A DNA stretch of 64,000 nucleotides from a virus. Location: positions 1-64,000 of the IMG/VR virus record IMGVR_UViG_3300047494_000229. The stretch is one strand, 5' to 3'. The notes below the pieces were generated by a model. That model saw only the letters and a list, made by a program, of their open reading frames with translations, ran no database searches and was not told the DNA's origin. This document shows positions 26,956 through 44,087 of this stretch, piece after piece (position 1 is the first letter of the stretch; the number at the start of each line of letters is the position of its first letter). The translations under genes were made by a program, and so were the position numbers.

Positions 26956-27047
26956 TGTCTTGGTAAAGTTCAGTGGCTGGGTGCGATCGCCATCAAAATC
27001 CGCACGCTTAAATTAACACAGGAAAAGGAAAAAACAAGGAAAAAACA

Positions 27048-27437
27048 ATGATCGTAAATTTGACACCTCACGCCATAAACATTTTGGCTAAAGAATCTTG
27101 CGTAAATTTAAAACAAGATCCCAAAACAAGGCAATGGGTTGCAGATGAAGCAACTCCAATTCGGACAATTGAAAGCTCTGGAGTTGCTAGAGTATCCGTT
27201 TCTAGTAGTTATGGGGAACCCCTAGAAGGGATTCCCACCCAAGTTCCAGTCTATGGGGAGATAGAAGGACTCCCCGATTATAAAGAGGGAACTTCATACA
27301 TTGTTTCGCTGCTAACCGTTAGTGCAGCGAAAGCCGGAGAACGTACCACAGAAGACTTATTTACTCCTGGGGTAATAGTTAGGAGTGCTGCAAATCAGTC
27401 CCTAATTTTGGGGTGTTTTGATTTAAATCGGCAGTAG
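27048..27437 (+). CDS. conserved phage protein (NLTPH motif)
   Basis: NLTPH, SGVARV, YGEIEGLP..GT.YIVS, IILGC-like motifs. Confidence 0.7.
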   Translation: MIVNLTPHAINILAKESCVNLKQDPKTRQWVADEATPIRTIESSGVARVSVSSSYGEPLEGIPTQVPVYGEIEGLPDYKEGTSYIVSLLTVSAAKAGERTTEDLFTPGVIVRSAANQSLILGCFDLNRQ

Positions 27438-27453
27438 AGAGTTCCAAAAATAG

Positions 27454-28056
27454 TTGAATCGCAAAGTGAGTACTATGCGATTCAACACGATGACCACAGA
27501 AACGAAGATAACACCAATGGCAAAATTTACCGACACTCCAATACTTACCGATCGCTTCTCTCAAGCTCTAGTTTTTGCAAGCCAAGCGCATTCTCATCAA
27601 GTTCGTAAGGGTAATAGAGAAGTGCCTTACGTTTCTCACCTGTTGGCTGTAGCCTCTTTAGTTTTGGAATCTGGAGGGGATGAAGATGAGGCGATCGCCG
27701 CCCTACTCCACGATGCGATTGAAGATATCCAAATTCATCCTGCATTAATTGATCAGAAGTTTGGTTGTTTTGTTCTTGGGTTTGTCCAAGAACTAACCGA
27801 AGACAAGTCTTTGCCTAAGCCAGAACGCAAAGCCGCTTATGTTAAGTCAATTCTTTCAATGTCGGAATCGGCGCTGAGAATCAGTATCGCCGACAAGCTC
27901 CACAATATCCGATGCTACAGCATAAACCCTCAATTGTGGGGGCAAGAGCAACATGAATTTTATGGAGCCTTGCTCGACAATTACGAACAACGCGAACTCG
28001 AAGGCGTTGAAGAACAACTAGTTGAGATGAATTTGCTGTTTGAGCAATTATCTTGA
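27454..28056 (+). CDS. HD-domain hydrolase, RelA/SpoT hydrolase (Mesh1/SAH)-like
   Basis: AH..Q.RK...PY.SH...V, AALLHD.IED, ELTEDK, ADKLHN; true start probably downstream of 27454. Confidence 0.85.
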   Translation: MNRKVSTMRFNTMTTETKITPMAKFTDTPILTDRFSQALVFASQAHSHQVRKGNREVPYVSHLLAVASLVLESGGDEDEAIAALLHDAIEDIQIHPALIDQKFGCFVLGFVQELTEDKSLPKPERKAAYVKSILSMSESALRISIADKLHNIRCYSINPQLWGQEQHEFYGALLDNYEQRELEGVEEQLVEMNLLFEQLS

Positions 28057-28172
28057 ATCAAGTTTTAGACAACTGCTCAATGTAGTTGATTACCTCACAA
28101 AATTAAGAGCGATCGCCTGCCCCGTCAAGAACGGCGATCGCTTGTCCACCCTATAAACAAAAAGTGAACACT

Positions 28173-28385
28173 ATGAAGTATACATCTCTAGCTACAGTTA
28201 TTTTATTGGTTGTATCGTCAACACCAGTACTTGCTGATTACACACCTCCGAATAACGGTGGGCCCGATTGCAATCCCTGCTTAGGGAGTGGTACGAGGTT
28301 TGTTGACAAGCCCAGTAAAACAGAAATGCACGAAATTGATTGCAAGCATCGTGGTTACGATCGCCGTAATTGCCCAAGTCTTTAG
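28173..28385 (+). CDS. small secreted peptide
   Basis: Signal peptide ending PVLA, then YTPPNNGGP..GSGTR...HRGYDRR. Confidence 0.6.
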   Translation: MKYTSLATVILLVVSSTPVLADYTPPNNGGPDCNPCLGSGTRFVDKPSKTEMHEIDCKHRGYDRRNCPSL

Positions 28386-28440
28386 GGAATAAGGCAGCCT
28401 AGATAAAATATATTGTAGGGGCGATCGCCCCTACTTTCTT

Positions 28441-29160
28441 ATGATCACAGAAAATATCAGAGACGAATTGCGGCGCATTCATGTTGAACTCAAAAAACCT
28501 TTCCCTGCGAACTTACACGAGTTCAGAGAGTTACCTGGCGGTAAAAAATGGGTATTTCTGCGATGGCAGACTATCCGTGAAAGGTTGGATGAAGTTGCCC
28601 CAGAGTGGATATCTGATTATTCAGAAGTTCAGTATCTTAATAATGATGCCATTTGTCGATGCGGCATCACAATATTAGGAATTCGGAAAGAGGCGATCGC
28701 TTCTGTTCCAATCTCAATTACTAGCAGTGGTGGTAAAGAAATGAGTCGCGGTAGTGCAGCCGATAGGCTAGCAGCGGAAGCATTGAAGAATACCGCAGAG
28801 GCTTGGGGCGTAGGGCGGTATCTAGACGATCAAGTTTTCACCATCCGTTACCTTTGGGATCGGATGCACGAACTTGATGACGCGGCGTGTGGAGAGGTTC
28901 GCCGTCTTTCCGAGCAGTACAAACTTGGGATAAAAGCTGCTACTAAACCAGCTTCACTGGTTAAACCTCAAGCTCCCAGAATTGACCGAAATTCTCTGAT
29001 GGCTCAAAGTGATTGCCTGATTGCTGGACTGTTATGGACTCCGGCTCAAGGCAAAGAATACCTTGAGAAAAATTATGGGAAGGGGGGGCGATCGCTCCTA
29101 ACTGATGCAGAATTATTAGATTTTATTGGCAAGCTTCAAAGGATGGGTGCTAGTGTCTAA
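28441..29160 (+). CDS. Rad52/Rad22 (Sak-type) single-strand annealing protein
   Basis: LKKPFP...IRERLDEV...W, AEALKNTAEAWGVGRYL. Confidence 0.85.
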   Translation: MITENIRDELRRIHVELKKPFPANLHEFRELPGGKKWVFLRWQTIRERLDEVAPEWISDYSEVQYLNNDAICRCGITILGIRKEAIASVPISITSSGGKEMSRGSAADRLAAEALKNTAEAWGVGRYLDDQVFTIRYLWDRMHELDDAACGEVRRLSEQYKLGIKAATKPASLVKPQAPRIDRNSLMAQSDCLIAGLLWTPAQGKEYLEKNYGKGGRSLLTDAELLDFIGKLQRMGASV

Positions 29161-29419
29161 AATTATTCCATTTAGTAACGCTACTGATTATCAATGTTGG
29201 CTCTATGCCAACTGCGAAAAATGCAAAAAATACCACGAGGATTTAGACGAACACGGCTACTCAAAATGTGAAATTGAAGGGGCGATCGTCTTGTCTAGTT
29301 GTGGAGAAGGTTTAACTGAAGAGATGGTTCAAAGAATGGGCGGCGTGCAGTCTGAGCAATGCCTACAAGATTACAATTTTTTTTCAACGGAAGTGTACAG
29401 AATTAGAGCCAGTAAATAA
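29126..29419 (+). CDS. Cys-rich hypothetical protein
   Basis: PFSNATDY..W...NCEKC...C motif. Confidence 0.5.
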   Translation: MASFKGWVLVSKIIPFSNATDYQCWLYANCEKCKKYHEDLDEHGYSKCEIEGAIVLSSCGEGLTEEMVQRMGGVQSEQCLQDYNFFSTEVYRIRASK

Positions 29420-29542
29420 TGAGTGAAATTAACTTATTTGGAGTCGAAATAAGGACTAATAGAAAAGTCAAAATTCTTTCTAAAAATAGCTTTCTGTATT
29501 TTGTTGCATACGTGAACGAACTCAATCAAGAAATTCACCCTA

Positions 29543-30613
29543 ATGCAATCGCTTGGGTATCTCATGCAAGTATCAACTTTTAAAATTGGCTCCATTGCCT
29601 CTGGTATGGGGATGCATCTGCACGGGTTAAAAAAGATTGGTGGGGTTCCCGTGTGGGCGATTGAATGCGATGAGGCGATCACCCGTTGTTACCAGCAAAA
29701 CCATCCAGAGTCCCGCATTATTTGTAATAAAGTCCAAGATGTGGCGATTGATGATTTAGAAGATATCGATTGCCTCACAGTTACACTCAGCTGTAAAAAT
29801 GCCTCAATTAGTCGAGGTGCTGATTGGGGTGAGACTGAGCAAGATACAGCAGCAGCAACGGCAGCGGCGAATATTCTTCGGGGTAAGCTACCAAAGTTCT
29901 TTTTGCTAGAAAATGTCTGGAGATATCGCACATTTGAATCTTTCCGCATTTTCAAGTCTGCACTGGCTGAATGCGGCTACTATTTCCGTTACTACAAACT
30001 TAATTGCAAAGATTGGGGCGTGGCCCAATCACGCGATCGCCTCTATGGAGTTGGCGTAAGACACGGAGCATTTTGGGACATCACTGAGCCTTCACTTCCT
30101 ATCTTGGGATGGTATGAGGCGATCGCTGATATGATTCCAGAATTGCCTCTTGTCAAGCTTGCACCTTGGCAGATAAAGAAGTTTCCATGTCTGGACTCTA
30201 CTTGTTTAATCCCCGACCATTCCAACTGGACAAGCCTTGTTTCTGTTGCTCAACCTGCACTAACGGTAAGAGCGGGGCATCAATCATTCAAAGCATTGAT
30301 TAAACACGCTGGGGGCGGTCGGGACAATGATCGCCTCTACCACTCTGACGAACCATCATTTACGATTCGGGCGCTAGGAAGAAGCGCAGATCACCATTCA
30401 AAATTGGCGGATGCGATTATAGGGGATAGAGTCGTTGCAGTCACTCCCCGCGCTTGTCTACGCTTCTTTGGGGACAAGGAAACAGCAGATAGTATTTGGT
30501 TGCCTCCTACCAAGTCACTGGCTATGGAGGTAGTGGGGAATGGGGCATCATGGGTGATGTTTGAGGCATTGGGGCGATCGCTATTTTCGACCCCAAACTG
30601 TCGGGGTACGTAG
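29543..30613 (+). CDS. C5 cytosine DNA methyltransferase
   Basis: SIASGMG (I), TLSCK (IV variant), LLENV (VI), QSRDRLY (VIII), VGNG (X). Confidence 0.85.
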   Translation: MQSLGYLMQVSTFKIGSIASGMGMHLHGLKKIGGVPVWAIECDEAITRCYQQNHPESRIICNKVQDVAIDDLEDIDCLTVTLSCKNASISRGADWGETEQDTAAATAAANILRGKLPKFFLLENVWRYRTFESFRIFKSALAECGYYFRYYKLNCKDWGVAQSRDRLYGVGVRHGAFWDITEPSLPILGWYEAIADMIPELPLVKLAPWQIKKFPCLDSTCLIPDHSNWTSLVSVAQPALTVRAGHQSFKALIKHAGGGRDNDRLYHSDEPSFTIRALGRSADHHSKLADAIIGDRVVAVTPRACLRFFGDKETADSIWLPPTKSLAMEVVGNGASWVMFEALGRSLFSTPNCRGT

Positions 30614-31654: not shown

Positions 31655-31887
31655 ATTGTGCCACTTTCTCTACTAGATATCTTGCAAATAATCTCAGTTA
31701 GATATATAGTAGATATATACCGAAGAGGAGGGCAAACAAATGAACATCACAATCACAGCACAAAAACCAGTAAGCGAATTTCTGCAAGTAGCACAAGAAC
31801 TAATCACTGAAATTCAAGAGTGGGTGAATGTGTTGTGGGTGCGTATCGTTGGTTGCCGTCCTCGGTTTGTAAGTAAAAAGGTAATTA
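31655..31887 (+). repeat. 233-bp direct repeat, copy 2
   Basis: Paralogue of 30761-30993. Confidence 0.9.
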
Positions 31888-32168: not shown

Positions 32169-32450
32169 ATGAAAATGACCATAGCGCAAATTAAAAATAC
32201 AATCAATGACACAACAGATAAACGACTGTTAAATAATCTAGAATTTGCCAAAACTCTAATGAATTTGGCATTGCCAGAATCACTAAAAAACGAGCAACAG
32301 CAACGCTCAATTTTAGCTGATACCATCTACTGCATGATCCAATGCAAATTGGATGAGATTTCAAATTGCAACAAACTTTACACATTAGGGGAATTGTATT
32401 TTTCTTTAAAAATCCCCAAACAATTCTTAGAGACAAATGCCAAAAGGTGA
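32169..32450 (+). CDS. hypothetical protein
   Basis: 93 aa operon member. Confidence 0.5.
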   Translation: MKMTIAQIKNTINDTTDKRLLNNLEFAKTLMNLALPESLKNEQQQRSILADTIYCMIQCKLDEISNCNKLYTLGELYFSLKIPKQFLETNAKR

Positions 32451-32820
32451 AAATCCCAACTCCCAGCGCAACTTAGTTGCTGGGAAGAACAAAAAACCCA
32501 ACTCAAAAAAAACGCCCATGCAACTTTCTGGAGTCGCTAGGGAGACAGCTAAAAGAGCTGGAAATGGCAATATGACAGAAGGTGTAGAGCGATCGCTTGC
32601 ACTATATGAGCAAATGAATCAAGATAGACTGTTTGTGCAGTCTCCAGTGTTTGTCAGAGTTAAGTTTTTGATAGAAGTGATCGCTCATTCTAAATCTGAA
32701 TTTTCAGAGCAGGCGGAAGCATTGCTTTATGAATTAGAAGATTTATTTATTGAAGAATCCCATCATGATGCGGTGTTAGATGGGGCGATTGAATTGAAGG
32801 GTGGTGCATATATAGTCTAA
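32437..32820 (+). CDS. putative small DNA-binding regulator
   Basis: Basic NPNSQRNL...KKTPMQL and GNGNMTEGVE segments; last gene of the cluster. Confidence 0.5.
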   Translation: MPKGENPNSQRNLVAGKNKKPNSKKTPMQLSGVARETAKRAGNGNMTEGVERSLALYEQMNQDRLFVQSPVFVRVKFLIEVIAHSKSEFSEQAEALLYELEDLFIEESHHDAVLDGAIELKGGAYIV

Positions 32821-32826
32821 TAATTG

Positions 32827-32860
32827 TTGCAGAGTACTAGCAATACTCTGCAATGTTTTT
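32827..32860 (+). terminator. hairpin plus T tract upstream of the cas operon
   Basis: TTGCAGAGTA-N7-TACTCTGCAA-TGTTTTT. Confidence 0.5.
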
Positions 32861-32894
32861 AGTTGAAAGGTAAGAGGAGTAGAGGAGTAAACTT

Positions 32895-33413
32895 GTGCTT
32901 TATAACCATTACGGCATACCCCAAACACGCGATCGCTCCTATGGCGCAGTCGCAGCCCTCACCTATTGGGTTTTTAAGTGCAGGGATAGAAGAAAGTCCC
33001 CAGCGATGGGGATAAAAACCTGGACTTTCTTGGAATCCAGTATCAGAAATTCGGCAGAGATATCTTCTACTTTGGAAGATTATTTACAGCGACTTTGTGA
33101 CAAACTTTTCTCCCAACTCCGTCCAGTGGAGTTGACTAAAATAATTCAGCCACAGCAGCGCATCTTGAGAGTAAATCTTGATGCAACTGAAATCAAAGAA
33201 TTGCCAATTGACCAAAACTTAGTTTTTATGGGCTGGCTAGATTTGGTTGCTGATATTGCGCCTCACGGTTTTAGTGAGTGGGACTTACTTGAGTTATGTC
33301 GCACCAAAGCGGGGATAATTCAAGTGCTTTGTCGCCTCAAATTTGAAGAGGATCGGGCATTAAGGATGGATGAGCCGGAAGATGCTATTGAGGTAGGAGC
33401 AATTGAATTATGA
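32895..33413 (+). CDS. cas11: type IV-B small subunit (Cas11-like)
   Basis: Helical 172 aa ORF (W.F....IRNSA..SSTLEDYLQRLCDKL) directly upstream of csf2. Confidence 0.6.
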   Translation: MLYNHYGIPQTRDRSYGAVAALTYWVFKCRDRRKSPAMGIKTWTFLESSIRNSAEISSTLEDYLQRLCDKLFSQLRPVELTKIIQPQQRILRVNLDATEIKELPIDQNLVFMGWLDLVADIAPHGFSEWDLLELCRTKAGIIQVLCRLKFEEDRALRMDEPEDAIEVGAIEL

Positions 33414-33571
33414 AGGAAATCAAAGAAGTCGCTAGCGCCCTAATTAATTTGCAAGATCACGGTGGTGATTGTATGTGCAATATCTGCCAAAAAGACCAAC
33501 AAACGATTGAGAAAAATCCTGAGATAGCGGAACAACTTACTGTATTGGTGAACAAAAAAATAAATGTTTGA
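33410..33571 (+). CDS. 53 aa HxxxCxCxxC microprotein, copy 1
   Basis: MKEIKEVASALINLQDHGGDCMCNICQKDQQTIEKNPEIAEQLTVLVNKKINV; ATGA overlap with cas11, overlaps the csf2 start; paralogue at 42276-42443. Confidence 0.85.
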   Translation: MKEIKEVASALINLQDHGGDCMCNICQKDQQTIEKNPEIAEQLTVLVNKKINV

Positions 33572-34703
33572 AAATTACGACATCTGTGATCGTTGCCGCC
33601 TAACTCTCCACTGCGTTTTCACCCCCCAACTTCCTTTGTCTCACATTGGGGAAGTGTCAGGAAATGTCAGCAACTTAAAAACAGTGAAGCTGCTTGATTT
33701 GGAGGGACAATCAAGACAGTGCTTTGTGTATTCAGGGAACGCCATTCGCAACGGTATTTTGCGGCGGGTTGGTGTAGCAGCTGCCCTTACAGATTTGGAA
33801 TTACAAGTCAACCCCGACGTGCATCAAACCATGTTCGCCGGTGGACGAATTGACGGTAGCACCGCATCAGACATGGAGTTAGACAAGAAAATCCGTACCT
33901 TTTTGCCGTGGCTTTCAGTGCTGGGAACCGCCAAACCCACAAAAGTATTTGGTTCCAAGGATCCTCAAATGGTTGCAGGGCGGATTAATGTCGGCTCTGC
34001 TCATTTAATCTGTTACGAATCAGCTGCTTACATTTACAATCAAATGCCAGGGATGCTGCCTCCAGAGGCGTTAGAGGGAATTGGGAAAATATTGGAGGCG
34101 CAGAAGGCGATCACCCTTGACCCAATGAGTTTACCAACAGCAGAGGCGATCGCCGCTTACAACGAGGTGAAGGCACAGTATCTACCATTGCTCCGTAAAG
34201 TGCTGCGGACATGGACAGAATTTATCACGGTTGACCAAACTACCCGCCGTGACAGTCTTCTTGACCCCAATTTAATTAAGTTTCTTCCCCCTGAAGCACA
34301 GAATTTATTGAAAGGGGAAGGGGGGAAGGAGAAGAAGTCTGACCAAATGATTGCGGGCGATCGTTTGATTATGGCGGGGTCAAAACTTTACTCGCGTTGG
34401 GATTTAAACACGACATCCGTGGAAGAAGGTTGGGTGTATGATGCATTACTGAAGTTCGATGAATCTCCGTACCTTGGAGGGAAGGGGCAAAGGGGTAACG
34501 GGCTTATATCCCTAGATATTTGGTATCAATCGGGTAAAGATTCTGGGATATTGTGCAGCATTGGTAAGCGTGCAGAGTCGGGGTTGTTGAGCGATAGATT
34601 CCAAGAACAGCACGGACGTTACAGAGAGTATATCAATCAATACCGCGAGTTCTTGACGGAAGCAAAAGACTCCAGCGAGTTAAAAAGTTTGTTAGGAAAT
34701 TAA
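33564..34703 (+). CDS. csf2: type IV CRISPR Cas7-family backbone protein Csf2
   Basis: PLSHIG, SGNAIRNGILRR, MFAGG, P.LSVLG, TRRD, YLGGKGQRGNG glycine loop. Confidence 0.9.
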   Translation: MFENYDICDRCRLTLHCVFTPQLPLSHIGEVSGNVSNLKTVKLLDLEGQSRQCFVYSGNAIRNGILRRVGVAAALTDLELQVNPDVHQTMFAGGRIDGSTASDMELDKKIRTFLPWLSVLGTAKPTKVFGSKDPQMVAGRINVGSAHLICYESAAYIYNQMPGMLPPEALEGIGKILEAQKAITLDPMSLPTAEAIAAYNEVKAQYLPLLRKVLRTWTEFITVDQTTRRDSLLDPNLIKFLPPEAQNLLKGEGGKEKKSDQMIAGDRLIMAGSKLYSRWDLNTTSVEEGWVYDALLKFDESPYLGGKGQRGNGLISLDIWYQSGKDSGILCSIGKRAESGLLSDRFQEQHGRYREYINQYREFLTEAKDSSELKSLLGN

Positions 34704-34791
34704 TTTGAATTGGTACTTGCCAATTCAAAAACACTTTGCTGCTATTGGTACATACCAAAATAAAAGGGCGGTAGAGCCCAAAGGATAAAAA

Positions 34792-34905
34792 ATGAAGCTA
34801 ATCAAAGAAACAGTGAATGGACAAGAGTGGACTAACGGTCACAGGGATTCATGGGTGCAGCTTGCCATCCTGGAGAAAGGCAAGAAGGCGGTTCTCACTG
34901 CATGA
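34792..34905 (+). CDS. 37 aa micro-ORF coupled to csf3
   Basis: MKLIKETVNGQEWTNGHRDSWVQLAILEKGKKAVLTA; AAGGA RBS; ATGA overlap with csf3. Confidence 0.55.
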   Translation: MKLIKETVNGQEWTNGHRDSWVQLAILEKGKKAVLTA

Positions 34906-35624
34906 AACCATTGAAAATAACTGCCGTAATGGGAAGTGCGATCGCCTGCTACGACTCCTATTCTCCAAGTTTAGATTCGCTCCTTGAGTGGCTAATACTG
35001 GATAAATTAAACCTCACTTCTCCCAATCCCACACCGGAACAAGTAGAAGCGACGCGCCCCATAGTTGACCGAGAGATGCCATTAGCCAAAGGCGAAGTTA
35101 TGGGTGAATGGTATTGGCAGGTTTCTTCACCCTGCTACCGCATTGTGAGCGAATATACAGATAGATACCGCAAGCGCTGGCAGCCAGGAATTGACAGTCC
35201 TCCTCCAGCGTGGGGAAAACGTAAGGCTAAATGGTCAACTTCTGAAGGGGCAGAGAAGAATTACGATCTGCCTTTATATTGTCGTAATACTCCGGCAATT
35301 AATTGGTATGCGGTGGGGGATAGGGAGGCGATCGCCCAACTCCTACAAAACTGTACCCATATTGGCAAGAAGCGATCTTATGGCAATGGACAGGTTTTGC
35401 GATGGCAAGTTGAACCAATAAAAGAAGACTGGCATCTGTGGCGTGATGATAAACTTATGCGTCCTATGCCATACAGGTTGTTATATTCAGATCCGCGAAT
35501 TTTGCAAAATGAACCTGTAATGATGAATTGGGGATGGCGTCCGCCTGCGTGGTTGCCTAGCAATAAAGAAGTGTGTGTAATGCCAAAGGGGAGTGTATGC
35601 CACTTAACTACGGCACAGGTTTGA
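34902..35624 (+). CDS. csf3: type IV CRISPR Cas5-family protein Csf3
   Basis: LKITA.M, LDSLL, WYAVGD...I..LL...HIGKKRSYGNG.V..W.VE, RPMP, GWRPPAW. Confidence 0.9.
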   Translation: MKPLKITAVMGSAIACYDSYSPSLDSLLEWLILDKLNLTSPNPTPEQVEATRPIVDREMPLAKGEVMGEWYWQVSSPCYRIVSEYTDRYRKRWQPGIDSPPPAWGKRKAKWSTSEGAEKNYDLPLYCRNTPAINWYAVGDREAIAQLLQNCTHIGKKRSYGNGQVLRWQVEPIKEDWHLWRDDKLMRPMPYRLLYSDPRILQNEPVMMNWGWRPPAWLPSNKEVCVMPKGSVCHLTTAQV

Positions 35625-36346
35625 CCGCGCCTTGGATGAAGAAAAAAGTAGATAGGGCGATCGCTTGTATTGAAGACTGGGTAAGTAAGTGTGATCGCCT
35701 CTGCTATACCTCAACTAGTGGTGGCAAGGATTCCTTGGTAACTGCTCACCTCATCCGCCACGTTTACCCTAGCTGCCCAATGGTGTGGATCAATCAAGGG
35801 CATTTAGCAGAGTGGCCTGACTGCATTGAACTATTGCAGTTTTTAAAAACTCAGGGATGGAACATCGTTGAACTATGTCCAGTGCGCGATTTGTGGCATT
35901 TGTACCTCGACTTGGGCATTCCATTGGAAGGGAAAATGGACACCAAAGCAGATAAAATAATAAACCAACGGTTAATGTACGACCCGTTGGAAGAGTACCA
36001 AGAGCTTAACAATATCAAGGGTTACGCTTGGGGTATTCGTAAAGATGAAAGTCGCAACCGCGCTTTTTACTTGCGGAAGTGGGGAGAATTACACCAACTG
36101 AAAAACGGACTGTGGTGTTGTTCGCCTGTGGCATTTTGGACGGTACAAGATATCTGGCTATATATTGACCAGCAGAAATTGCCTTATCCTGCCATGTATG
36201 ACCGCGATCGCCTCACCATCCGCAACGGGCCACCCATTGGTACAACCGGGGTAAACTGGGGGCGGTTGGCGGAACTCAGAAAACACCACCCTGATTTGTG
36301 GCAGCAGTTTGTAGAGAAATTTCCAGAGGTGCGAGATTATGGCTGA
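35597..36346 (+). CDS. cysH: CysH-like PAPS-reductase-family (PP-loop) protein
   Basis: SGGKDS PP-loop, WGIRKDESRNR, P.AFWT..DIW.YI....LPY..MYD. Confidence 0.9.
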   Translation: MPLNYGTGLTAPWMKKKVDRAIACIEDWVSKCDRLCYTSTSGGKDSLVTAHLIRHVYPSCPMVWINQGHLAEWPDCIELLQFLKTQGWNIVELCPVRDLWHLYLDLGIPLEGKMDTKADKIINQRLMYDPLEEYQELNNIKGYAWGIRKDESRNRAFYLRKWGELHQLKNGLWCCSPVAFWTVQDIWLYIDQQKLPYPAMYDRDRLTIRNGPPIGTTGVNWGRLAELRKHHPDLWQQFVEKFPEVRDYG

Positions 36347-36995
36347 TTTGTGTTACCTCTGCGGAAAACCTGCAACCAAACCACTAGAACTCAAGGATAG
36401 TTTCACCAGCCATTCTCAATGCCGCATCCCCACATCAAATAAGATGTGCGATCGGTGTCACTCAACAATTGCCGGCGACCAAAAACAACTCTGGTACTGG
36501 AACGAGGGTAAAAATAAGTGGAGCAAATTGTGGGGGCGATCGCTCTCCCGAATTTATCAAGGCGATAAACTACTCGCTCCCGTGATTGAAGGGGAAAAGG
36601 AAGGTTTGCCAATAGTCAAAAACCTGCTTACCCGTGTTGAACTTCGCGGTTTTTTACTTAATCCCCCACAACCGCCATTTACTATAGCGATCGCCGAGTC
36701 AGGGCAGAAGCATATTCTGCCGTGGGCACAAGAGGCGTTAAACCGTGTCATTTTCCCAGTACAATTCGAGCTTGATACTGTGTATATAGTTTACGCCCAA
36801 TTTACTGTGCTACTGGGCTTTTATGAGCAGATGATGACGCTGGGATTTTCAAAAACTGAGATTGACACTGGGGATTATCGGAGCGACAGATTGATGCAAA
36901 ATCTAGAAATTTGGGAGCCACTGGAAGAGGTGATCGCCCCGATGCGTGGAACGAGATTGTTACAGTTAATTTCTTTTGTGGGACAAATTCAGTGA
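36339..36995 (+). CDS. csf1: type IV CRISPR large subunit Csf1 (Cas8-like)
   Basis: CYLCG...SFT...CDRC zinc finger; NPPQPPF.IAIAESGQKH. Confidence 0.85.
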   Translation: MADLCYLCGKPATKPLELKDSFTSHSQCRIPTSNKMCDRCHSTIAGDQKQLWYWNEGKNKWSKLWGRSLSRIYQGDKLLAPVIEGEKEGLPIVKNLLTRVELRGFLLNPPQPPFTIAIAESGQKHILPWAQEALNRVIFPVQFELDTVYIVYAQFTVLLGFYEQMMTLGFSKTEIDTGDYRSDRLMQNLEIWEPLEEVIAPMRGTRLLQLISFVGQIQ

Positions 36996-37801
36996 AACCC
37001 TACAAACTGCCTAAAGGTTATTTGAATTTCCAACAATTCAATAACCACTTGAGTCAAATACAATTAGTTAAACCCAAACCTATTAATGTTTTGGGAATGC
37101 CAGAGGTAGCAAATAATCTATCCCATATCTATAGTAAATGGTCACAGGGATACCCTTTATACTGCGTCAGACCTAATCTACTAGAAGAGATGTTAGAAAC
37201 CGATGTTGGCGAAAATCTAGCACTATTTACTGACATCAATTTAGCAATCCCATCTTATGTTTTGTTTTTACCTCAATATCAGATTAAATCCCCTTGCGGT
37301 AAGGGTTGTATTGATTATCTGGTTATCAATCATGAAGAGTTAGATTTGCCAGAACATAAACACGCGATCGCTTGGGGCGGTGTTGATTCCAATGATGGAT
37401 TGTTCTTAGCGTACAAGCGAATTCGCAGGGATGGAACCTTACAGCGATCGCGCTTTGGGACTGAGGATAAAGAACAACAAGAACAGTCTTTATTACTCAG
37501 AAATATAGCATTGCAATCAGTTCTTCTGCTGCAATACTATCCAGAAATTGAAGAGCAAATTACCATTGTGCCTGGGAAAGAAAAGGGATTTGGTGGGAAT
37601 AAATTAGAATCCCCTTTTCTACTCCCTCGCTGGTTAGGGAAAGAATCAAAATCGTCGCCAAGCTCAAGCACCGGTAAAAGTGGTGCATCTAAAGCTACGC
37701 ATTTTCGGCGGGGGCACTGGAGGGCGCAGCCATGCGGAAAAGGTAGGGCAGAAACAAAAATAACCTGGGTACGCCCTGCATGGGTAGCTGGCAACAATTA
37801 G
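36992..37801 (+). CDS. HxRRGHWR-motif protein coupled to csf1
   Basis: GTGA overlap; C-terminal HFRRGHWRAQPCGKGR...WVRP.WV. Confidence 0.7.
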   Translation: MKPYKLPKGYLNFQQFNNHLSQIQLVKPKPINVLGMPEVANNLSHIYSKWSQGYPLYCVRPNLLEEMLETDVGENLALFTDINLAIPSYVLFLPQYQIKSPCGKGCIDYLVINHEELDLPEHKHAIAWGGVDSNDGLFLAYKRIRRDGTLQRSRFGTEDKEQQEQSLLLRNIALQSVLLLQYYPEIEEQITIVPGKEKGFGGNKLESPFLLPRWLGKESKSSPSSSTGKSGASKATHFRRGHWRAQPCGKGRAETKITWVRPAWVAGNN

Positions 37802-37815
37802 AGCCACTTTGGAAT

Positions 37816-37840
37816 ACCCGACTTCTGCAAGAAGTCGGGT
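37816..37840. terminator. hairpin ending the cas operon
   Basis: ACCCGACTTC-TGCAA-GAAGTCGGGT. Confidence 0.5.
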
Positions 37841-38074
37841 AAAGGGTAAAGGAAAATTCTATCCTTTTCCCCTTTAACCTTTCCCCCTTTCCCTACAAGA
37901 GTACAAAAGGTACTTTTGCACTCTTGTCTACTCATCCTCCCTACTTCCCGTAAAAATTATTGGGTAAGGGGTTGACATTTACCCGTCACTTACCCGATAC
38001 TATTTACATACGAGGGCGATGGCGATCGCCTTCCAAACAATTGAAAAACCAAAAGTGAAATATAGGAGAAAAAC

Positions 38075-38791
38075 ATGATTGAGTCAATTTTGAAACTTGC
38101 TAACTTCGGATTTGTAAAACCATTTACAGCATTAATAGAGCAAAGATGCCAAGGCAGTATGCTTGATGTGATTGATGGAGTTCTAGAATTTGATTTGTCC
38201 TTGATAGACAGACAAGAAATAGATAGCTCCTACAAGATTGAAAACACAGTAAAATTAGTCGCACACCAAACCAAGTGGTTAAAATCAAAATATTTATCTT
38301 GGTATCCAATGATGGATGCTCGGCATCCTGGTAAAGGATTTGATGAAAAGCCACCAATAGAATTGGTGGAAAAAATTAATCAAATTGACGCGCTTCTTGA
38401 CATAGCAAGAGCCAAGAAACTTGAACTGCTTCTCCCAACACTCGATAACAATACGCCTGATCCATCCAGAGAAGAAAGAGTGTATATCTGTAAAGTTGTG
38501 GTTAATGATGGGCGCACTGGAGAGGCAATTTATACACCATTGAGATACTCGCTAGAACCTTCTTGCATAGATATCAGATATCTAGAAGAAGTAATTTACA
38601 AAGTGCCCTACTATTGGCATGGCAAGTCTGGTTTTTCTGAAATCTACTATTCAGATAAAGAAGTAGTAGAAGTGGTGGCGATAGATCCATCATTTGAAGG
38701 ATTAGACCCGCTAGTCTATGGCGGCTGGCAACTGGACAAGGTATTTACTAAAAAAGCCTCCCTCAACAGAGAGGGGTATAAAGAATACTAA
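38075..38791 (+). CDS. hypothetical protein
   Basis: AGGAG RBS, 238 aa. Confidence 0.6.
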   Translation: MIESILKLANFGFVKPFTALIEQRCQGSMLDVIDGVLEFDLSLIDRQEIDSSYKIENTVKLVAHQTKWLKSKYLSWYPMMDARHPGKGFDEKPPIELVEKINQIDALLDIARAKKLELLLPTLDNNTPDPSREERVYICKVVVNDGRTGEAIYTPLRYSLEPSCIDIRYLEEVIYKVPYYWHGKSGFSEIYYSDKEVVEVVAIDPSFEGLDPLVYGGWQLDKVFTKKASLNREGYKEY

Positions 38792-40880: not shown

Positions 40881-41777
40881 CTACATTCTTCTTTGAATTG
40901 CGGCATTAATCACTTCTTGACTACTAGAAGAACTGGTGATGTTTGCCAAATTCAGGAATAAGTTTACTTTATCCCTAGCCTGCTCAAATGTTAGTCTTGG
41001 CGGATTATTGATCACCAACTTGACTAAATCTGAGTACCAGTATCGGGGCGATCGCAAAGTCAACCCCGCATCAATAACTTTCTCGCGCCACCCATCTTCG
41101 GGCAGGATTTCTTGGTCTTCTTTCCCCAAATACCAATGTTTGCTAACTTGGGGCATCCAAGACCCCATATTCGCATCACAATACCTTAACCCTTTCACAT
41201 CCATGAAATCATATCCCATCGCCTTGATTTCTCTAAGAAACGACAATTCAGAAACCCCAGCAATATAAGGATGGCAGATGGGAAGAGTTAAAACTCCGTA
41301 GTCCTTTGCCAACTGCAAAGTTTTGAGGTGCTGTTTAACCGTAAACCGTTCAATAGGCGGTTCATTTCCAGTGATGCCCAAGACAAGGGCAAAATTGGGA
41401 ATTTTGGCAAGCCTCGACATAATGCGATCACTAATTGTCCATTTGCTGACACAAGTAATGAGCTTGGCGATAGGCGAAACTTTCTCAACCCAATGCCACA
41501 AATACTCATCAAGTACTGGGAAAAATGGATCTGTGATGGCTGTGAATCCAACGATATCCCCAGCCAGGATACCCCACGGAAAACTATAAAAACGTTCTTG
41601 CTCTTGGGGATTGTCCTTAATGAAGGGAGAAACATTAACAAAGCTACAAGCCTTGTTAATGCCCGCAATTGGGTTCTTATTCCACACCTCCCGACGGGTG
41701 TCATGCTCTGTTATAAAGCAATATTTGCAAGCCACGGGGCAAGCAGATTTGCCGACTTCAAAACGGAAGGATTGCAT
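40881..41777 (-). CDS. radical SAM protein (SPL-like TIM barrel)
   Basis: CPVACKYC (CxxxCxxC), TDPFF, VSKW, PICHPYIAG. Confidence 0.85.
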   Translation of the reverse strand: MQSFRFEVGKSACPVACKYCFITEHDTRREVWNKNPIAGINKACSFVNVSPFIKDNPQEQERFYSFPWGILAGDIVGFTAITDPFFPVLDEYLWHWVEKVSPIAKLITCVSKWTISDRIMSRLAKIPNFALVLGITGNEPPIERFTVKQHLKTLQLAKDYGVLTLPICHPYIAGVSELSFLREIKAMGYDFMDVKGLRYCDANMGSWMPQVSKHWYLGKEDQEILPEDGWREKVIDAGLTLRSPRYWYSDLVKLVINNPPRLTFEQARDKVNLFLNLANITSSSSSQEVINAAIQRRM

Positions 41778-42279
41778 CTAATATCTCCGAAAATACTGAA
41801 TCTTGATCAAGTTCACCATTGATGGTGATTAATTTGTTTTTTTGTTGCCAAAACTCTAGTAACGGAGGAAGGCGATCGCTCTCTAGCAATAGTCTTTCCG
41901 CGCTACTTAGTTCATCTCCTCTAGCTCGAATTTGACAACGTAATACTGCAATATTTGGGGAAATTTTAAGATAGATAACAAAATCTACCTCTTGAACGAC
42001 TTTGGCTTGATTGATATTGCGAGGAAAGCCATCGATTATCCAAGAATTTTTAGCACATATTGGCTTGGCTATTTCAATGGCGATCGCGTCTGGCAACGGA
42101 AGCCAAGTTTTACTATCGCCCCAATACGAACTAATTCTTTGGCTGAGTTCGGTTTTATTTTGAAATTCCGCTCTCACTAAATCCCCCATACTATAATGGA
42201 GGACTGTATAAAACTCAGATAGATTCTTACCCTGAGTGCTTTTTCCAGCACTGGGAAGACCTAAGAGAACTATCTTCAT
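41758..42279 (-). CDS. adenylate-kinase-family NMP kinase
   Basis: GLPSAGKSTQ P-loop, SMGDLVR, IDGFPR...QA. Confidence 0.9.
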   Translation of the reverse strand: MKIVLLGLPSAGKSTQGKNLSEFYTVLHYSMGDLVRAEFQNKTELSQRISSYWGDSKTWLPLPDAIAIEIAKPICAKNSWIIDGFPRNINQAKVVQEVDFVIYLKISPNIAVLRCQIRARGDELSSAERLLLESDRLPPLLEFWQQKNKLITINGELDQDSVFSEILDAILPF

Positions 42280-42443
42280 TTGTTTTTTGTAGTTAAACTA
42301 GCAACGGCGCTAGCGACCTCTGGATTTTTTGAAATCGTTTCCTTGTCTCCCTGACATTGACTACATCCGCAATCAGCACCGTGATCTTGCACGTTTGCGA
42401 TCGCTTCACAAACCTGCTTAATTTGATTAACTTCTTTTGACAT
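42276..42443 (-). CDS. 55 aa HxxxCxCxxC microprotein, copy 2
   Basis: MSKEVNQIKQVCEAIANVQDHGADCGCSQCQGDKETISKNPEVASAVASLTTKNK; ATGA overlap with the kinase gene; paralogue of 33410-33571. Confidence 0.85.
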   Translation of the reverse strand: MSKEVNQIKQVCEAIANVQDHGADCGCSQCQGDKETISKNPEVASAVASLTTKNK

Positions 42444-43638
42444 TAGCTATCTCCAAAATTTGTACAGGACTCATACCCACTGTTACTTGTAGTTCGGGAG
42501 GCAAGACATCCTGAAACATCGACAAAAAACAGTAGGCGCATTTTAAGCATTTATTCTTAGGGATATACTCACTCCAAACCATCCAGCTATTGACTGCATA
42601 TAAATCATTGGCTAGCCCAAAGCGCGGGTGTAGCCGAATGTTAGAATTTTCACCTGGTGGAATTGCGGGGTCTGTTGCTAGCATTCCCCCGGTGATAAAC
42701 CGAGCAAAGCTCATCTCGCCCCAAGAGGGCATTTTGTTATCCCAAGTGCGAATATTGATGTAAGGCATCCCCATGTCGGGAGCTTTTGGGCAGTTTGTGC
42801 AGCACAAGCTACACTGCGATCGCACTTCTACCGCGCATTTTTGATATCTTTCTGATGCTGTATGCACTTCAACTTGAAAGCCCAAATAACGCAGCAATTC
42901 CACACTATGCGGAACTGGCTGCACAAATTGAGCAGTTCCTGCACAAGAATCAGAAATAGGACAAGAATTGCAATCAACAAAGTTTGGCGCGTTGTAATAC
43001 GGCGAGAGCGATCGCTTTTTTTCTGACAACGCCGTAACCGCGCACTGGGTTCTAGTCCAATATGGGACTTTTAGCCATTGGGCTAATTCCCGCATATATC
43101 CTGATGTTGCCTGCGGGGTAATTTTGAGTGTTCGCATCCACTCTTGGTTGTCAGGTGCAGAGATACCCTGCATCCCAGCGTCTCTAACAACTTGTTCATC
43201 ACCACGGAAGCCACTTGAGACAACCGCGTGGCATCCCGCATCAACCGAACGTGTAAACATCTCTTTGATAACCCGTGGATCATCGTTGAGAGTGTGAATA
43301 ATTGGGCGAATATAGGCGATCGCCTTTGCTCCCGACTCACGCGCAGCACTCAAAGTCTTGTACCTTGATTCAGTTGGTGCTGGCTCCATCTCCTTGGGAA
43401 GGTGGGAGATGGAAGCAAATACAAACAAGTTTAAATTAGCTGCCCAATATTTCAAGCGCTCTCGCCACCAAGGGCTAGACAAATCGCCTTTGGTAATCAG
43501 GGCAACTGGCCCCGTATGGTGATCGCTCACCAATTGATTCAATTTAGCTGCTGTACTTTCCCTCAAAATAGAGGGATCAGCCAAATTATTTACACTGACG
43601 GGCAAATCTCTGAGCAATCTTAGCCATTCTTCCTGCAT
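42427..43638 (-). CDS. radical-SAM-like barrel protein with C-terminal Cys clusters
   Basis: ADP, LITKG, SIS.LP..MEP, IAYIRPII..LND; no N-terminal CxxxCxxC; CNSC..C, CSLCCTNC and CLKCAYC in the C-terminal half. Confidence 0.65.
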   Translation of the reverse strand: MQEEWLRLLRDLPVSVNNLADPSILRESTAAKLNQLVSDHHTGPVALITKGDLSSPWWRERLKYWAANLNLFVFASISHLPKEMEPAPTESRYKTLSAARESGAKAIAYIRPIIHTLNDDPRVIKEMFTRSVDAGCHAVVSSGFRGDEQVVRDAGMQGISAPDNQEWMRTLKITPQATSGYMRELAQWLKVPYWTRTQCAVTALSEKKRSLSPYYNAPNFVDCNSCPISDSCAGTAQFVQPVPHSVELLRYLGFQVEVHTASERYQKCAVEVRSQCSLCCTNCPKAPDMGMPYINIRTWDNKMPSWGEMSFARFITGGMLATDPAIPPGENSNIRLHPRFGLANDLYAVNSWMVWSEYIPKNKCLKCAYCFLSMFQDVLPPELQVTVGMSPVQILEIANVKRS

Positions 43639-44087
43639 AATTTAAAAGACTCCTTTGGATATACAAGACAATGTGGGTCGCTGAAGGGGATGAACGGATT
43701 GTGCAGGCTCTCAACCACCAATCCCTCATTCCCTGATTTAAATGTGTGGAGTATCCCCCTTGGCATCCACACCCGGATACCGGGATGGAGAGGATAATGC
43801 AGAATATTTTTGTCTCTATAACAGACAAACTCGCCACTACCTTCAAGGACAGTTACTCTGCGATCGCTCTTGGGATGAGTGTGGAGGCGATTATCTTCTG
43901 TCGATTCCGGGGGGAATCGGACAATTAGCTGGCCCAACTCTCCCCACACTGCCTTGATTAGCAGGGCTTCCATGTATTCTTCGTAGGCTACCCAATCGCC
44001 TTGAGGGATTGGCGCACAAGAAAGTTCAACTTTTTCAACGCCGCCACGCTTCCAATTTTGACGGCATTGTTCAGCAAAATTAATCAA
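43620..44087 (-). CDS. cupin-domain protein
   Basis: LHTHP....VTVLEGSG and LHPG..VWMPRGILHTF cupin motifs. Confidence 0.85.
   Translation of the reverse strand: MINFAEQCRQNWKRGGVEKVELSCAPIPQGDWVAYEEYMEALLIKAVWGELGQLIVRFPPESTEDNRLHTHPKSDRRVTVLEGSGEFVCYRDKNILHYPLHPGIRVWMPRGILHTFKSGNEGLVVESLHNPFIPFSDPHCLVYPKESFKLCRKNG

Follow-up and report, generated by a model that had tools for sequence, protein, structure and literature searches.

The window, the whole 64,000-nt stretch of DNA analysed here, carries a genuine, though rearranged and guide-less, type IV-B CRISPR-Cas gene set that is borne by a cyanophage and belongs to a distinct type IV-B clade of cyanophages and cyanobacterial plasmids. The set is part of a translationally coupled operon that features the five-gene cassette and three lineage-specific extras, namely two small ORFs and an AcrVA2/FinQ-family gene at the 3' end. 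To our knowledge, no type IV-B system has a known function, and type IV-B is the only CRISPR-Cas subtype in that position. The likeliest role of the cassette, which we hold at about even odds, is conflict with host CRISPR or rival mobile elements rather than adaptive immunity of its own.

Carrier phage

The window corresponds to positions 1–64,000 of record IMGVR_UViG_3300047494_000229 (74,272 b), and the absence searches covered the whole record, whose completeness according to CheckV is ~69%. The record features a major head protein, scaffold, and protease as phage hallmarks, a serine integrase gene, and 144 HIP1 (GCGATCGC) sites where ~1 is expected, and relatives fall in bins with Dolichospermum. 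These features support a temperate, HIP1-rich cyanophage as the carrier, in agreement with the cyanophage origin proposed in an earlier sequence-only reading. The cassette is located in the non-structural region of the phage, where genes for a C5 DNA methyltransferase, an HD_4 hydrolase, and a DHH phosphoesterase are among its neighbours. Additionally, a short segment upstream of the cassette is matched at 34 of 35 positions by a CRISPR spacer from public sequencing run X5 (coded organism B), in which a 102-nt contig reads repeat-spacer-repeat with the spacer between two 37-nt repeats, GTTGCGACCTCTGTTGAAGGGGAAAAGGTGCTGAAAC. The match shows that the phage is targeted by a CRISPR array in public data.

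Operon organization

The genes cas11, csf2, csf3, cysH-like, and csf1 form a single overlapping plus-strand operon (32895–36995), and the order of the whole operon is cas11, 53-aa ORF, csf2, 37-aa ORF, csf3, cysH-like, csf1, and AcrVA2-like gene (Table 1). It is read as one operon because there are overlaps at every junction (ATGA, GTGA, and 8-nt overlaps), with a terminator on the 5' side and a hairpin on the 3' side.

Table 1. Positions of the operon genes and associated features in the window
Feature	Position	Strand	Evidence or remark
Protospacer	31700..31734		spacer match 34/35, run X5
Terminator-like hairpin and T-run, closes upstream gene	32825..32855	+	cassette begins 40 nt further on
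cas11 (type IV small subunit), 172 aa, GTG start	32895..33413	+	PADLOC typeIV_Cas11
53-aa HCCC microprotein gene	33410..33571	+	ATGA overlap with cas11, ATGnnTGA overlap with csf2
csf2 (type IV Cas7), 379 aa	33564..34703	+	PADLOC typeIV_Cas7, PDB profile search, Foldseek
10-bp inverted repeat, immediately 3' of csf2 stop	34704..34729
37-aa ORF in variable csf2-csf3 slot (putative gene)	34792..34905	+	ATGA overlap with csf3
csf3 (type IV Cas5), 240 aa from most likely start, ATG 34902	34902..35624	+	Csf3_0_IV, TIGR03116
cysH-like PP-loop ATP pyrophosphatase (CasCysH type), probable start	35597..36346	+	PF01507, phrog_424, alignment
csf1 (type IV large subunit), 218 aa, CxxC...CxxC zinc finger	36339..36995	+	Csf1_0_IV
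AcrVA2/FinQ-family gene (assigned), 269 aa	36992..37801	+	PF26125, 7ci1 profile match, Foldseek
Hairpin 3' of the operon's last gene	37817..37839	+	read from sequence
55-aa paralogue of the 53-aa microprotein	42276..42443	-

The gene order and coordinates of the sequence-only reading were borne out, with three starts corrected. The csf3 gene most likely starts at ATG 34902, which overlaps the stop of the 37-aa ORF as ATGA and is the point where the alignment of relatives begins, and the probable start of cysH is ATG 35597. For the last gene, the start codon is GTG 36992, in a GTGA overlap with the csf1 stop, which gives a product of 269 aa instead of 296. Short contigs that are 100% identical to cas11, csf2, and cysH were found in a metatranscriptome library, which is a weak hint that the cassette is expressed; the reads of this library could be DNA carry-over.

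The 53-aa protein is a member of a real, rare HCCC microprotein family. Its paralogue is likewise wedged into place, with a radical-SAM gene on one side and a kinase-like gene on the other, and the 53-aa ORF is retained in a 95%-identical relative (run X2). No relatives of the 37-aa ORF were found, and in the X2 relative its slot holds 1133 other bases. The possibility that the 37-aa ORF is a cas6 remnant was rejected. Both ORFs are absent from all 33 other related loci. The two ORFs had been taken as interleaved parts of the system, but their absence from these loci, the replacement in the 37-aa slot, and the occurrence of the 53-aa paralogue in an unrelated operon indicate that they are lineage-specific additions, not type IV-B components.

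Gene identities and type IV-B membership

The genes were identified with CRISPRCasTyper-type HMMs (PADLOC/CCTyper models), a profile search against the PDB, and fold comparison. The HMM check called for in the sequence-only reading, which proposed a type IV-B effector accompanied by cysH, assigns Csf1 (Csf1_0_IV, E = 2.8e-24), Csf2 (typeIV_Cas7, E = 1.4e-29), Csf3 (Csf3_0_IV, E = 6.9e-47), and Cas11 (typeIV_Cas11, E = 2.8e-6), all with PADLOC. The Csf2 profile matches only the Csf2 chains 7jhy and 8rc2 in the PDB, and the best Foldseek matches are type IV-A Csf2 proteins (3.6e-9), with 7jhy matched too; the protein bears an extra helical insert relative to canonical Csf2. The Cas11-like subunit is the weakest of the five components and has no sequence match in the PDB; it is 58–85% identical in the 33 related loci, where its gene is immediately upstream of csf2 in every case. 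Alignment of Csf1, the small Cas8-like large subunit, with its relatives reveals that C5, C8, C37, and C40 are invariant and that the C-terminal QLSLF tail of many relatives is missing in the phage protein. The cysH product matches PF01507 (E = 1.2e-14) and phrog_424 (2.6e-27) and, by alignment, keeps the SGGKDS PP-loop motif and lacks a C-terminal catalytic Cys motif of ECGLH type. A kept PP-loop and a missing reductase Cys are the features described for CasCysH (PMC8175902).

The curated NCBIfam equivalog models TIGR03114–03116 score only 18–62 bits against cut-offs of 130–140. TIGR03115 matches Csf2 with E = 1.3e-3, far under the model cut-off, and TIGR03116 matches Csf3 with 5.8e-17 (62 bits, cut-off 140). 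By these scores, the cyanobacterial and cyanophage clade is divergent from the curated type IV models. The locus features Csf2, Csf3, Csf1, Cas11, and a Cys-less cysH product, with no helicase or adaptation genes and no array or cas6 in the 74-kb record, and is confirmed as a type IV-B gene set.

These absences had been reported from the window. No CRISPR array was found in the 74,272-b record by k-mer spacing or repeat search, and no repeat-like unit is present in these 74 kb. Neither a model search nor tblastn found Cas6 in the 74 kb; the control for the Cas6 model matched nowhere, so tblastn carries the weight here. Models for Cas1, Cas2, and a DEAD_2 (DinG-type) helicase matched nothing in the 74-kb record, and their control models did match. 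Cas12 was not found in the record by searches that included tblastn, and the pairing of a Cas12p nuclease with a 37-nt-repeat array does not occur in it. A PADLOC scan of the operon genes matched none of them to RecD or Cas10-HD. The lack of array, cas6, dinG, cas1, and cas2 holds across the available 74 kb, and as the record is only ~69% complete an array may lie in the rest of the phage genome.

The AcrVA2/FinQ-family gene

The last gene product had been left unnamed as an HxRRGHWR protein. It matches PF26125 AcrVA2-like (precomputed) with an Atlas score of 0.98, and its sole profile match in the PDB is 7ci1. The AF2 model (pLDDT 82) gives significant Foldseek matches only to 7ci1 and 7ci2 (7.5e-5 over ~300 columns), the next match having E ~0.1, which places the predicted structure in the AcrVA2 fold. 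The H237-x-R239-x-x-H242 motif is located at 37700–37717, and HFRRGHW of the phage protein aligns with HIRRGHW of 7ci1 (AcrVA2 H286/R288/H291); R239, W243, and R244 do not vary among 18 homologues, and H237 is nearly invariant. In AcrVA2 these His/Arg/His residues are required for the co-translational destruction of cas12a mRNA (bioRxiv 10.1101/2022.11.29.518452). The predicted fold and the aligned motif assign the protein to the AcrVA2/FinQ anti-CRISPR family, with the H-x-R-x-x-H motif essential in AcrVA2 retained.

No description of an AcrVA2/FinQ gene translationally coupled to a type IV-B csf1 was found in the literature searched. None of the 33 other loci carries the gene, and csf genes are lacking around the single further viral copy (L018), so the link to the cassette is a facultative one that may reflect no more than proximity within a variable island. 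The coupling to csf1 is a concrete lead that the cassette is part of the repertoire of counter-defence and inter-element conflict.

Clade and function

More than 290 Csf2 homologues were found at 58–87% identity, and intact five-gene cassettes are present in 33 other loci and in the Gloeobacter plasmid pGMOR1, which speaks for selection on the cassette. The sequence-only reading was right that csf1 comes last, but this is not peculiar to the phage; csf1 holds the last position in 30 of the 31 related loci that retain it and in pGMOR1, and is the standard order of the clade. All public annotations seen for clade proteins are "hypothetical", so the clade may escape standard pipelines.

Inter-element conflict or counter-defence is the best-supported reading of what the cassette may do, since its island holds phage Cas12p weapons elsewhere and an anti-CRISPR-family gene here. 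The context that points to it consists of the coupled AcrVA2-like gene, the Cas12p-type nucleases and arrays 0–7 kb downstream of csf1 in relatives, the spacer against the phage, and the DNA methyltransferase, HD_4, and DHH neighbours. By analogy with the solved Mycobacterium complex, Cas11 and Csf2 would assemble into a filament that binds RNA and has Csf3 and Csf1 as its cap, and the CysH-like enzyme, through its PP-loop, would use ATP to adenylate or otherwise modify the nucleic acid that the filament holds. The crRNA sponge and CysH scaffold ideas put forward in the sequence-only reading are hypotheses already published (PMC7038947, PMC8175902). In a two-pronged form of the conflict reading, which we consider decidedly unlikely as specified, the Csf filament would capture crRNAs of host class 1 systems or of the Cas12p arrays of rival phages, CysH would adenylate or disable them, and the AcrVA2-like protein would destroy the mRNA of a Cas nuclease such as Cas12p during translation. 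If true, this would be the first function for type IV-B, an anti-CRISPR made of CRISPR parts. Against the conflict reading, the presence of arrays and cas6 genes in relatives suggests that part of the clade does use guides.

These same arrays bear on a tentative and rather improbable alternative, in which the Csf complex loads crRNAs made elsewhere, binds matching DNA or RNA, and silences it as type IV-A does. The crRNAs would come from a Cas12p-type array in the third of the genome that the record lacks, a co-resident phage, or host arrays processed by the host's own Cas6. In at least five related lineages, arrays whose 37-nt repeats end in GAAAC are present at 0–7 kb from the cassette (~850 nt after csf1 in L006). 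A true cas6 is located inside the cassette in L033 and pGMOR1, Csf3 (Cas5) and Csf1 are fully conserved, and the record is incomplete. The clade is not uniformly guide-less, and the relatives' Cas12p arrays and in-cassette cas6 weaken the premise that it is. However, the 74 kb of this phage lack an array, repeat-like unit, or cas6, and most clade members have neither array nor cas6 within the fetched flanks. Additionally, every one of the neighbouring arrays has a Cas12p-type nuclease at its flank, that of L010 featuring W44, Y45, W47, and L51, the TrxA-pocket residues named for Cas12p, and such arrays are credited to Cas12p (bioRxiv 10.1101/2025.01.20.633832). The solved IV-B complex also did not load co-expressed crRNAs (PMC7937560).

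Another reading, which we judge unlikely, is that the Csf filament is a carrier for the CysH-like enzyme, which in relatives would be assisted by cupin or Coq4-like proteins, and delivers it to the DNA or RNA of the phage for marking or protection, possibly at the replication fork. The cysH gene is embedded between csf3 and csf1 and occurs as two paralogue types, L015/L032 carry a block duplication of the csf3-cysH-csf1 unit, and a cupin or HDxxH protein is encoded between cysH and csf1 in L029, L010, L034, and pGMOR1. The QLSLF tail in which many relatives' Csf1 proteins end is the consensus sliding-clamp-binding peptide, and the PADLOC scan gave weak BrxP and SspD matches. The phage Csf1, however, lacks this peptide, the phage cassette lacks a cupin, and no CasCysH is known to have a demonstrated modification chemistry. 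That the cassette is a decaying or selfish passenger, now functionless in this phage, is very improbable: the missing array, the highly variable island, and a cassette copy in run X5 with csf3 fused to csf1 by a 1537-b deletion are outweighed by five intact, tightly coupled ORFs with 46–87% amino-acid identity across dozens of phages and invariant motifs.

The clade offers natural test settings for IV-B function, in phages of bloom- and symbiosis-forming cyanobacteria and a plasmid of cultured Gloeobacter. Its variety is useful for such tests, as members feature or lack cas6, carry either of two CysH types, and adjoin Cas12p arrays or an anti-CRISPR-family gene.

Comparison with known systems

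The actinobacterial IV-B systems of Mycobacterium sp. JS623 (7JHY) and Rhodococcus opacus pROB01 share Csf1, Cas11, Csf2, Csf3, and a PP-loop protein akin to CysH that lacks the reductase Cys, and, like the phage locus, they are on a mobile carrier without array, cas6, helicase, or adaptation genes. However, identity is only ~27–31% over part of Csf2, the phage Csf2 is ~80–95 aa longer with a helical insert, and the actinobacterial carrier is a plasmid rather than a tailed phage. The JS623 order is csf1-cas11-csf2-csf3 (PMC7937560), whereas the phage has cas11-csf2-csf3-cysH-csf1 in one overlapping operon; in pROB01 cas11-csf2-csf3 are co-directional, cysH is divergent, and an upstream gene for a 217-aa hypothetical protein is probably csf1. 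The IV-B locus of the "Fuxiviridae", viruses of Bathyarchaeia, is also virus-borne with an adjacent CysH-like gene and was read as counter-defence or inter-element conflict (PMC10848311), but it is in an archaeal virus with a mini-array, while the carrier here is a cyanobacterial phage whose 74 kb include a coupled AcrVA2-like gene and lack an array.

AcrVA2 (7CI1)/FinQ proteins of PF26125 have the fold and the C-terminal H-x-R-R-G-H-W in common with the operon's last gene product, at ~13% identity, and no Cas12a is known in the setting of the phage. The Cas12p ("Cas12 hacker") islands (bioRxiv 10.1101/2025.01.20.633832) of L005, L006, and L010–L013 agree with the phage in cassette, clade, gene order, and the variable island that follows csf1, whereas the 74 kb of this phage have the AcrVA2-like gene instead of Cas12p or an array, and its Csf1 lacks QLSLF. 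Plasmid pGMOR1 of Gloeobacter morelensis (NZ_CP063846.1, 72.7–89.9 kb) has the same five-gene order at 37–51% identity (25% for its type-2 cysH), with all csf genes annotated as hypothetical. The strain is cultured. Unlike the phage locus, this one is on a plasmid, with a cas6 of I-MYXAN type separating csf2 from csf3 and a cupin gene separating cysH from csf1.

Identity of the Type IV-B Cassette

The sequence-only reading described the genes cas11, csf2, csf3, cysH and csf1 (window 32895-36995) as a type IV-B CRISPR effector, and re-reading of the ORFs showed that its plus-strand positions are correct. It had called for an HMM check, and the CRISPRCasTyper-derived PADLOC models assign Cas11 (typeIV_Cas11, E = 2.8e-6), Csf2 (typeIV_Cas7, 1.4e-29), Csf3 (Csf3_0_IV, 6.9e-47) and Csf1 (Csf1_0_IV, 2.8e-24), which settles the identity as type IV-B. 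The curated NCBIfam Csf models score far under their cut-off (Csf3 5.8e-17, Csf1 2.7e-8, Csf2 1.3e-3). The PAPS-reductase domain is the only Pfam match in the cassette, and the Pfam version used, which is without PF26125, has no model matching the Csf proteins or the last gene (36992-37801). A Csf2 profile built from 19 homologues matches only two sequences across the PDB, namely Csf2 of the IV-B complex 7JHY (1.1e-4) and type IV-A Csf2, and a fold search with the AlphaFold model of Csf2 (pTM 0.70) ranks type IV Csf2 chains at the top, followed by Csm3 and 7JHY. A Cas11 profile has no match among PDB sequences, and PDB searches with the single sequences of Csf2, Cas11 and the last gene returned nothing useful. 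Alignment of the CysH-like protein shows that the PP-loop SGGKDS and a G-x-R-x-x-E-S motif are kept and that the C-terminal reductase cysteine motif is absent, in agreement with the published "CasCysH", which has a PP-loop without the reductase cysteine (PMC8175902).

The absence of an array, Cas6, Cas1, Cas2 and a DinG-type helicase holds across the whole parent IMG/VR virus record (74,272 b, of which the window is bases 1-64000; 69% complete by CheckV), in which no Cas12 was found. The type IV-B observation is thus confirmed, with the caveat that the record lacks about one third of the phage genome.

Operon Organization and Micro-ORFs

The cas11 stop overlaps the start of a 53-amino acid ORF (33410-33571) in ATGA, and the stop of this ORF overlaps the csf2 start in ATGTTTGA. 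The stop of a 37-amino acid ORF (34792-34905) overlaps ATG 34902, the point where csf3 relatives start aligning. The csf3/cysH and cysH/csf1 junctions are both overlaps, and the csf1 stop overlaps the GTG start of the last gene in GTGA. One metatranscriptome library, filed twice, contains short contigs that match segments of cas11, csf2 and cysH at 100% identity, a weak hint that these genes are transcribed. In the comparison with public runs, stretches without cover carried no evidential weight.

The micro-ORFs had been taken for interleaved parts of the system, a view that did not hold. Both ORFs, as well as the last gene, are absent from all 33 related loci compared (14 from IMG/VR, 17 from metagenomes and 2 from cyanobacterial bins; the closest Csf2 relatives, at 87% and 75% identity, lie outside this set), and the flanking genes also differ, so the module is made up of the five genes and everything else is local cargo. 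The 53-amino acid protein has a paralogue (42276-42443, minus strand, 51% identity) that similarly overlaps between radical-SAM and kinase-like genes, and an exhaustive profile search found about 20 more stand-alone proteins of 50-59 amino acids with an invariant H-x(4-8)-C-x-C-x-x-C (mostly H-x4); a pattern scan of IMG/VR did not find the microprotein. The ORF is also retained in a 95%-identical relative from another run. From this conservation the protein is judged to be real, and the paralogue, the relatives and the retention together indicate a rare zinc-knuckle-like, operon-inserting microprotein rather than a Csf subunit. The minus-strand operon at window 40881-44087 encodes a cupin, a radical-SAM protein, a 55-amino acid HCCC microprotein, an NMP-kinase-like protein and a second radical-SAM protein, and has the microprotein family in common with the IV-B operon.

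The 37-amino acid ORF, for which no relatives were found, is a putative gene and unproven. The csf2-csf3 slot in which it lies is a hot spot that is vacant in most relatives, holds cas6 in pGMOR1 (a plasmid of Gloeobacter morelensis) and contains 1133 unrelated bases in the 95%-identical relative. That the slot holds a cas6 remnant here was ruled out, since there is no similarity to Cas6 proteins. Other small genes occupy the slot in four loci (L006, L022, L029, L037), where a conserved ORF of 110-120 amino acids (VSGNWFITPHAV...) with no family match occurs with opposite-strand genes.

The Last Gene

The last gene had been described as an "HxRRGHWR protein"; its position and motif stand, the GTG start at 36992 shortens it from 296 to 269 amino acids, and its identity can be added. 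PF26125 is the precomputed Pfam label of its homologues, a family that the protein atlas lists as AcrVA2-like (score 0.98). A profile of 18 homologues has a single PDB match, AcrVA2 (7CI1), with HFRRGHW aligned to HIRRGHW, and the confidently predicted structure (pLDDT 82) has AcrVA2 as its sole significant structural match (E = 7.5e-5 over ~300 columns; next E ~0.1). By profile and predicted structure the last gene is assigned to the AcrVA2/FinQ family. R239, W243 and R244 are invariant in the family alignment, and all three AcrVA2-essential motif residues (H/R/H) are kept. In AcrVA2, H286, R288 and H291 are required for translation-dependent loss of cas12a mRNA, and AcrVA2 homologues, of which the plasmid fertility inhibitor FinQ is one, are widespread among mobile elements not confronted with Cas12a (bioRxiv 10.1101/2022.11.29.518452; PMC13728456).

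Among other viral contigs only one was found to carry an AcrVA2-like gene, and it has no csf genes nearby. The homologues P0130 (AcrVA2-like) and P0118 (Csf2) come from one 13,960-b Logan contig, a hint that the AcrVA2-like gene and csf2 may co-occur elsewhere. The core of the CRISPR repeat of L010, a related locus, matches window 37452-37469 within the AcrVA2-like gene at 17/18 nt (E = 0.006, one query); it is the sole match of the relatives' repeats in this genome and is probably due to chance.

Arrays, Cas12p and Spacers in Related Loci

The clade is not uniformly array-less. L005, L006, L010, L011/L012 and L013 have arrays of 2-28 repeats of 37 nt at 0-7 kb downstream of csf1. The adjoining proteins of 520-625 amino acids score between 1e-56 and 1e-166 against Cas12u2/Cas12f models, and W44, Y45, W47 and L51 of the L010 protein are the thioredoxin-pocket residues reported for Cas12p, a phage nuclease known as the "Cas12 hacker" (bioRxiv 10.1101/2025.01.20.633832). 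Cas12p is therefore the simplest assignment for the arrays, and the Cas12p-type nucleases are of two kinds (~622 and 523-587 amino acids). The 66 unique spacers of these arrays have no full-length match in this phage or the fetched loci. In L033 (2.9e-48) and pGMOR1 the cassette itself contains a true cas6, placed after csf2, and no array was found in the fetched flanks of either. This phage is without Cas12p, array and cas6 in 74 kb, and the island downstream of csf1 holds the AcrVA2-family gene instead.

A 102-nt contig of the public run X5, from an organism coded B, is a repeat-spacer-repeat whose spacer matches window 31700-31734 at 34/35, so this phage, or one closely related to it, is the target of a CRISPR array in nature. 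Another X5 contig of organism B, in window 34899-36995, joins 35242 to 36780 and is a cassette remnant from which the end of csf3, cysH and the greater part of csf1 are missing, with a sequence like a tRNA 3' end ahead of it. The isolated Cylindrospermopsis phage Cr-LKS4 (L021, OQ625504.1) carries a distant Csf3-like gene on its own (26% identity) and, ~3.5 kb away, an annotated "transposase" with 45% identity to the L010 Cas12p-type protein.

Phage and Host

Genes for a major head protein (phrog_1005, 3e-67), a scaffold protein, a maturation protease and a serine integrase mark the record as a temperate tailed phage. The cyanobacterial HIP1 palindrome GCGATCGC is present in 144 copies versus ~1 expected, and the nearest Csf2 relatives include Dolichospermum-bin proteins. 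Assignment as a cyanophage is well supported by these sequence features, which do not fix the host genus. The whole stretch is present in one run only, a moss metagenome. A second palindrome, AGGAACAATTGTTCCTGA, occurs in pairs 47 or 105 b apart. The locus has no real blastn match in phage or plasmid collections, and Rfam on window 32400-38200 gave nothing better than chance.

Features of the window and of related loci (L numbers; L039 is pGMOR1)
Feature	Positions	Strand	Remark
Palindrome pairs	window 2800/2847, 7912/7959, 49511/49616		3' of plus-strand genes
Serine integrase	window 11750-13114
DHH/DHHA1 phosphoesterase, HD_4 hydrolase, Rad52-like protein, C5 DNA methyltransferase	window 25546-30613	+	block upstream of cassette
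Hairpin and T-run	window 32825-32855		closes upstream gene
Hairpin	window 37817-37839		3' of last gene
Cas12p-type nuclease and array	L005:17737-21104, L006:16612-17080, L010:16339-19316, L011:14188-18023, L012:14188-20849, L013:13310-14964
cas6	L033:2077-2673, L039:9207-9998
Csf1 with QLSLF-type tail	L003:12542-13294, L006:14972-15760, L010:13211-13978, L011:12545-13306, L015:7955-8665, L035:3750-4487, L036:3306-4031
Type-2 cysH arrangement	L010:12515-13207, L034:3797-4432, L006:14223-14915, L029:9344-9712
Tandem block	L015:3387-8665, L032:7139-12369
Conserved slot ORF	L006:11124-11486, L022:3187-3519, L029:7124-7456, L037:400-732
Csf3-like gene and "transposase"	L021:4848-5561 and 8850-10558

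Gene Order and Variation in the Clade

More than 290 Csf2 homologues have 58-87% identity, and none is named. That csf1 comes last had been noted for this phage; the order cas11-csf2-csf3-cysH-csf1 is found in 30 of the 31 loci that retain csf1 and in pGMOR1, which makes it a clade trait. Deviations are L033, in which cysH precedes csf3, and L034, in which csf1 is first, like in canonical systems. L015 and L032 feature a tandem block, csf3-cysH(type 2)-csf3'-csf1-x-csf3''-cysH(type 1)-csf1', an arrangement which suggests that Csf3, CysH and Csf1 may be a functional unit. Complex prediction for Csf3 and Csf1 with CysH as partner gave a median of 0.15 (runs 0.49/0.00/0.15), values that speak neither for nor against binding. 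In four loci type-2 cysH (SWGKDS) is followed by an HDxxHxL-motif protein of 211-230 amino acids or a 122-amino acid cupin, and then csf1. In many relatives the C-terminus of Csf1 is extended by a variable, Pro-rich stretch that ends in QLSLF (QLLLF in L015), which we take to be the consensus beta-sliding-clamp-binding peptide.

Possible Function

The setting consists of five conserved coupled genes, an intact PP-loop enzyme, a phage under CRISPR pressure and a variable island that holds CRISPR weapons in relatives and a gene of an anti-CRISPR family in this phage. We infer that the cassette serves in conflicts with CRISPR systems of the host or with rival elements. Csf2 and Cas11 of the Mycobacterium complex are known to assemble into a filament with bound RNA, and the RNA loaded is heterogeneous (PMC7937560). 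By analogy, such a filament would assemble here, and CysH would use ATP to act on the nucleic acid held by it. It is possible, if unlikely, that the complex uses guides made elsewhere, a reading to which the arrays and cas6 of relatives lend support. Rather doubtful is a Csf complex that serves nucleic acid modification; the two cysH paralogue types, the duplicated csf3-cysH-csf1 block, the cupin or HDxxH partners of cysH and the clamp-binding-type tail in relatives speak for it, whereas Csf1 of this phage is without that tail.

Comparison with Known Systems

Array-less IV-B systems with cysH have been reported from plasmids, prophages, some lytic phages and an archaeal virus, and the sponge and scaffold ideas for IV-B have also been published (PMC7038947, PMC8175902, PMC10848311). 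For cyanophages, the literature searched contains only the solitary Csf3-like fold of CrV-01T (PMC12481020). The window adds the coupling to an AcrVA2/FinQ-family gene, the microprotein family, the spacer match, and a clade member without Cas12p, array and clamp tail. Canonical Rhodococcus and Mycobacterium systems have only 27-31% identity over part of Csf2. The published JS623 system differs in its csf1-cas11-csf2-csf3 order (PMC7937560), and in pROB01 cysH is divergent and upstream of cas11-csf2-csf3. In contrast, pGMOR1, a complete plasmid from cultured Gloeobacter morelensis whose csf genes are all annotated as hypothetical, has the identical order at 37-51% identity.
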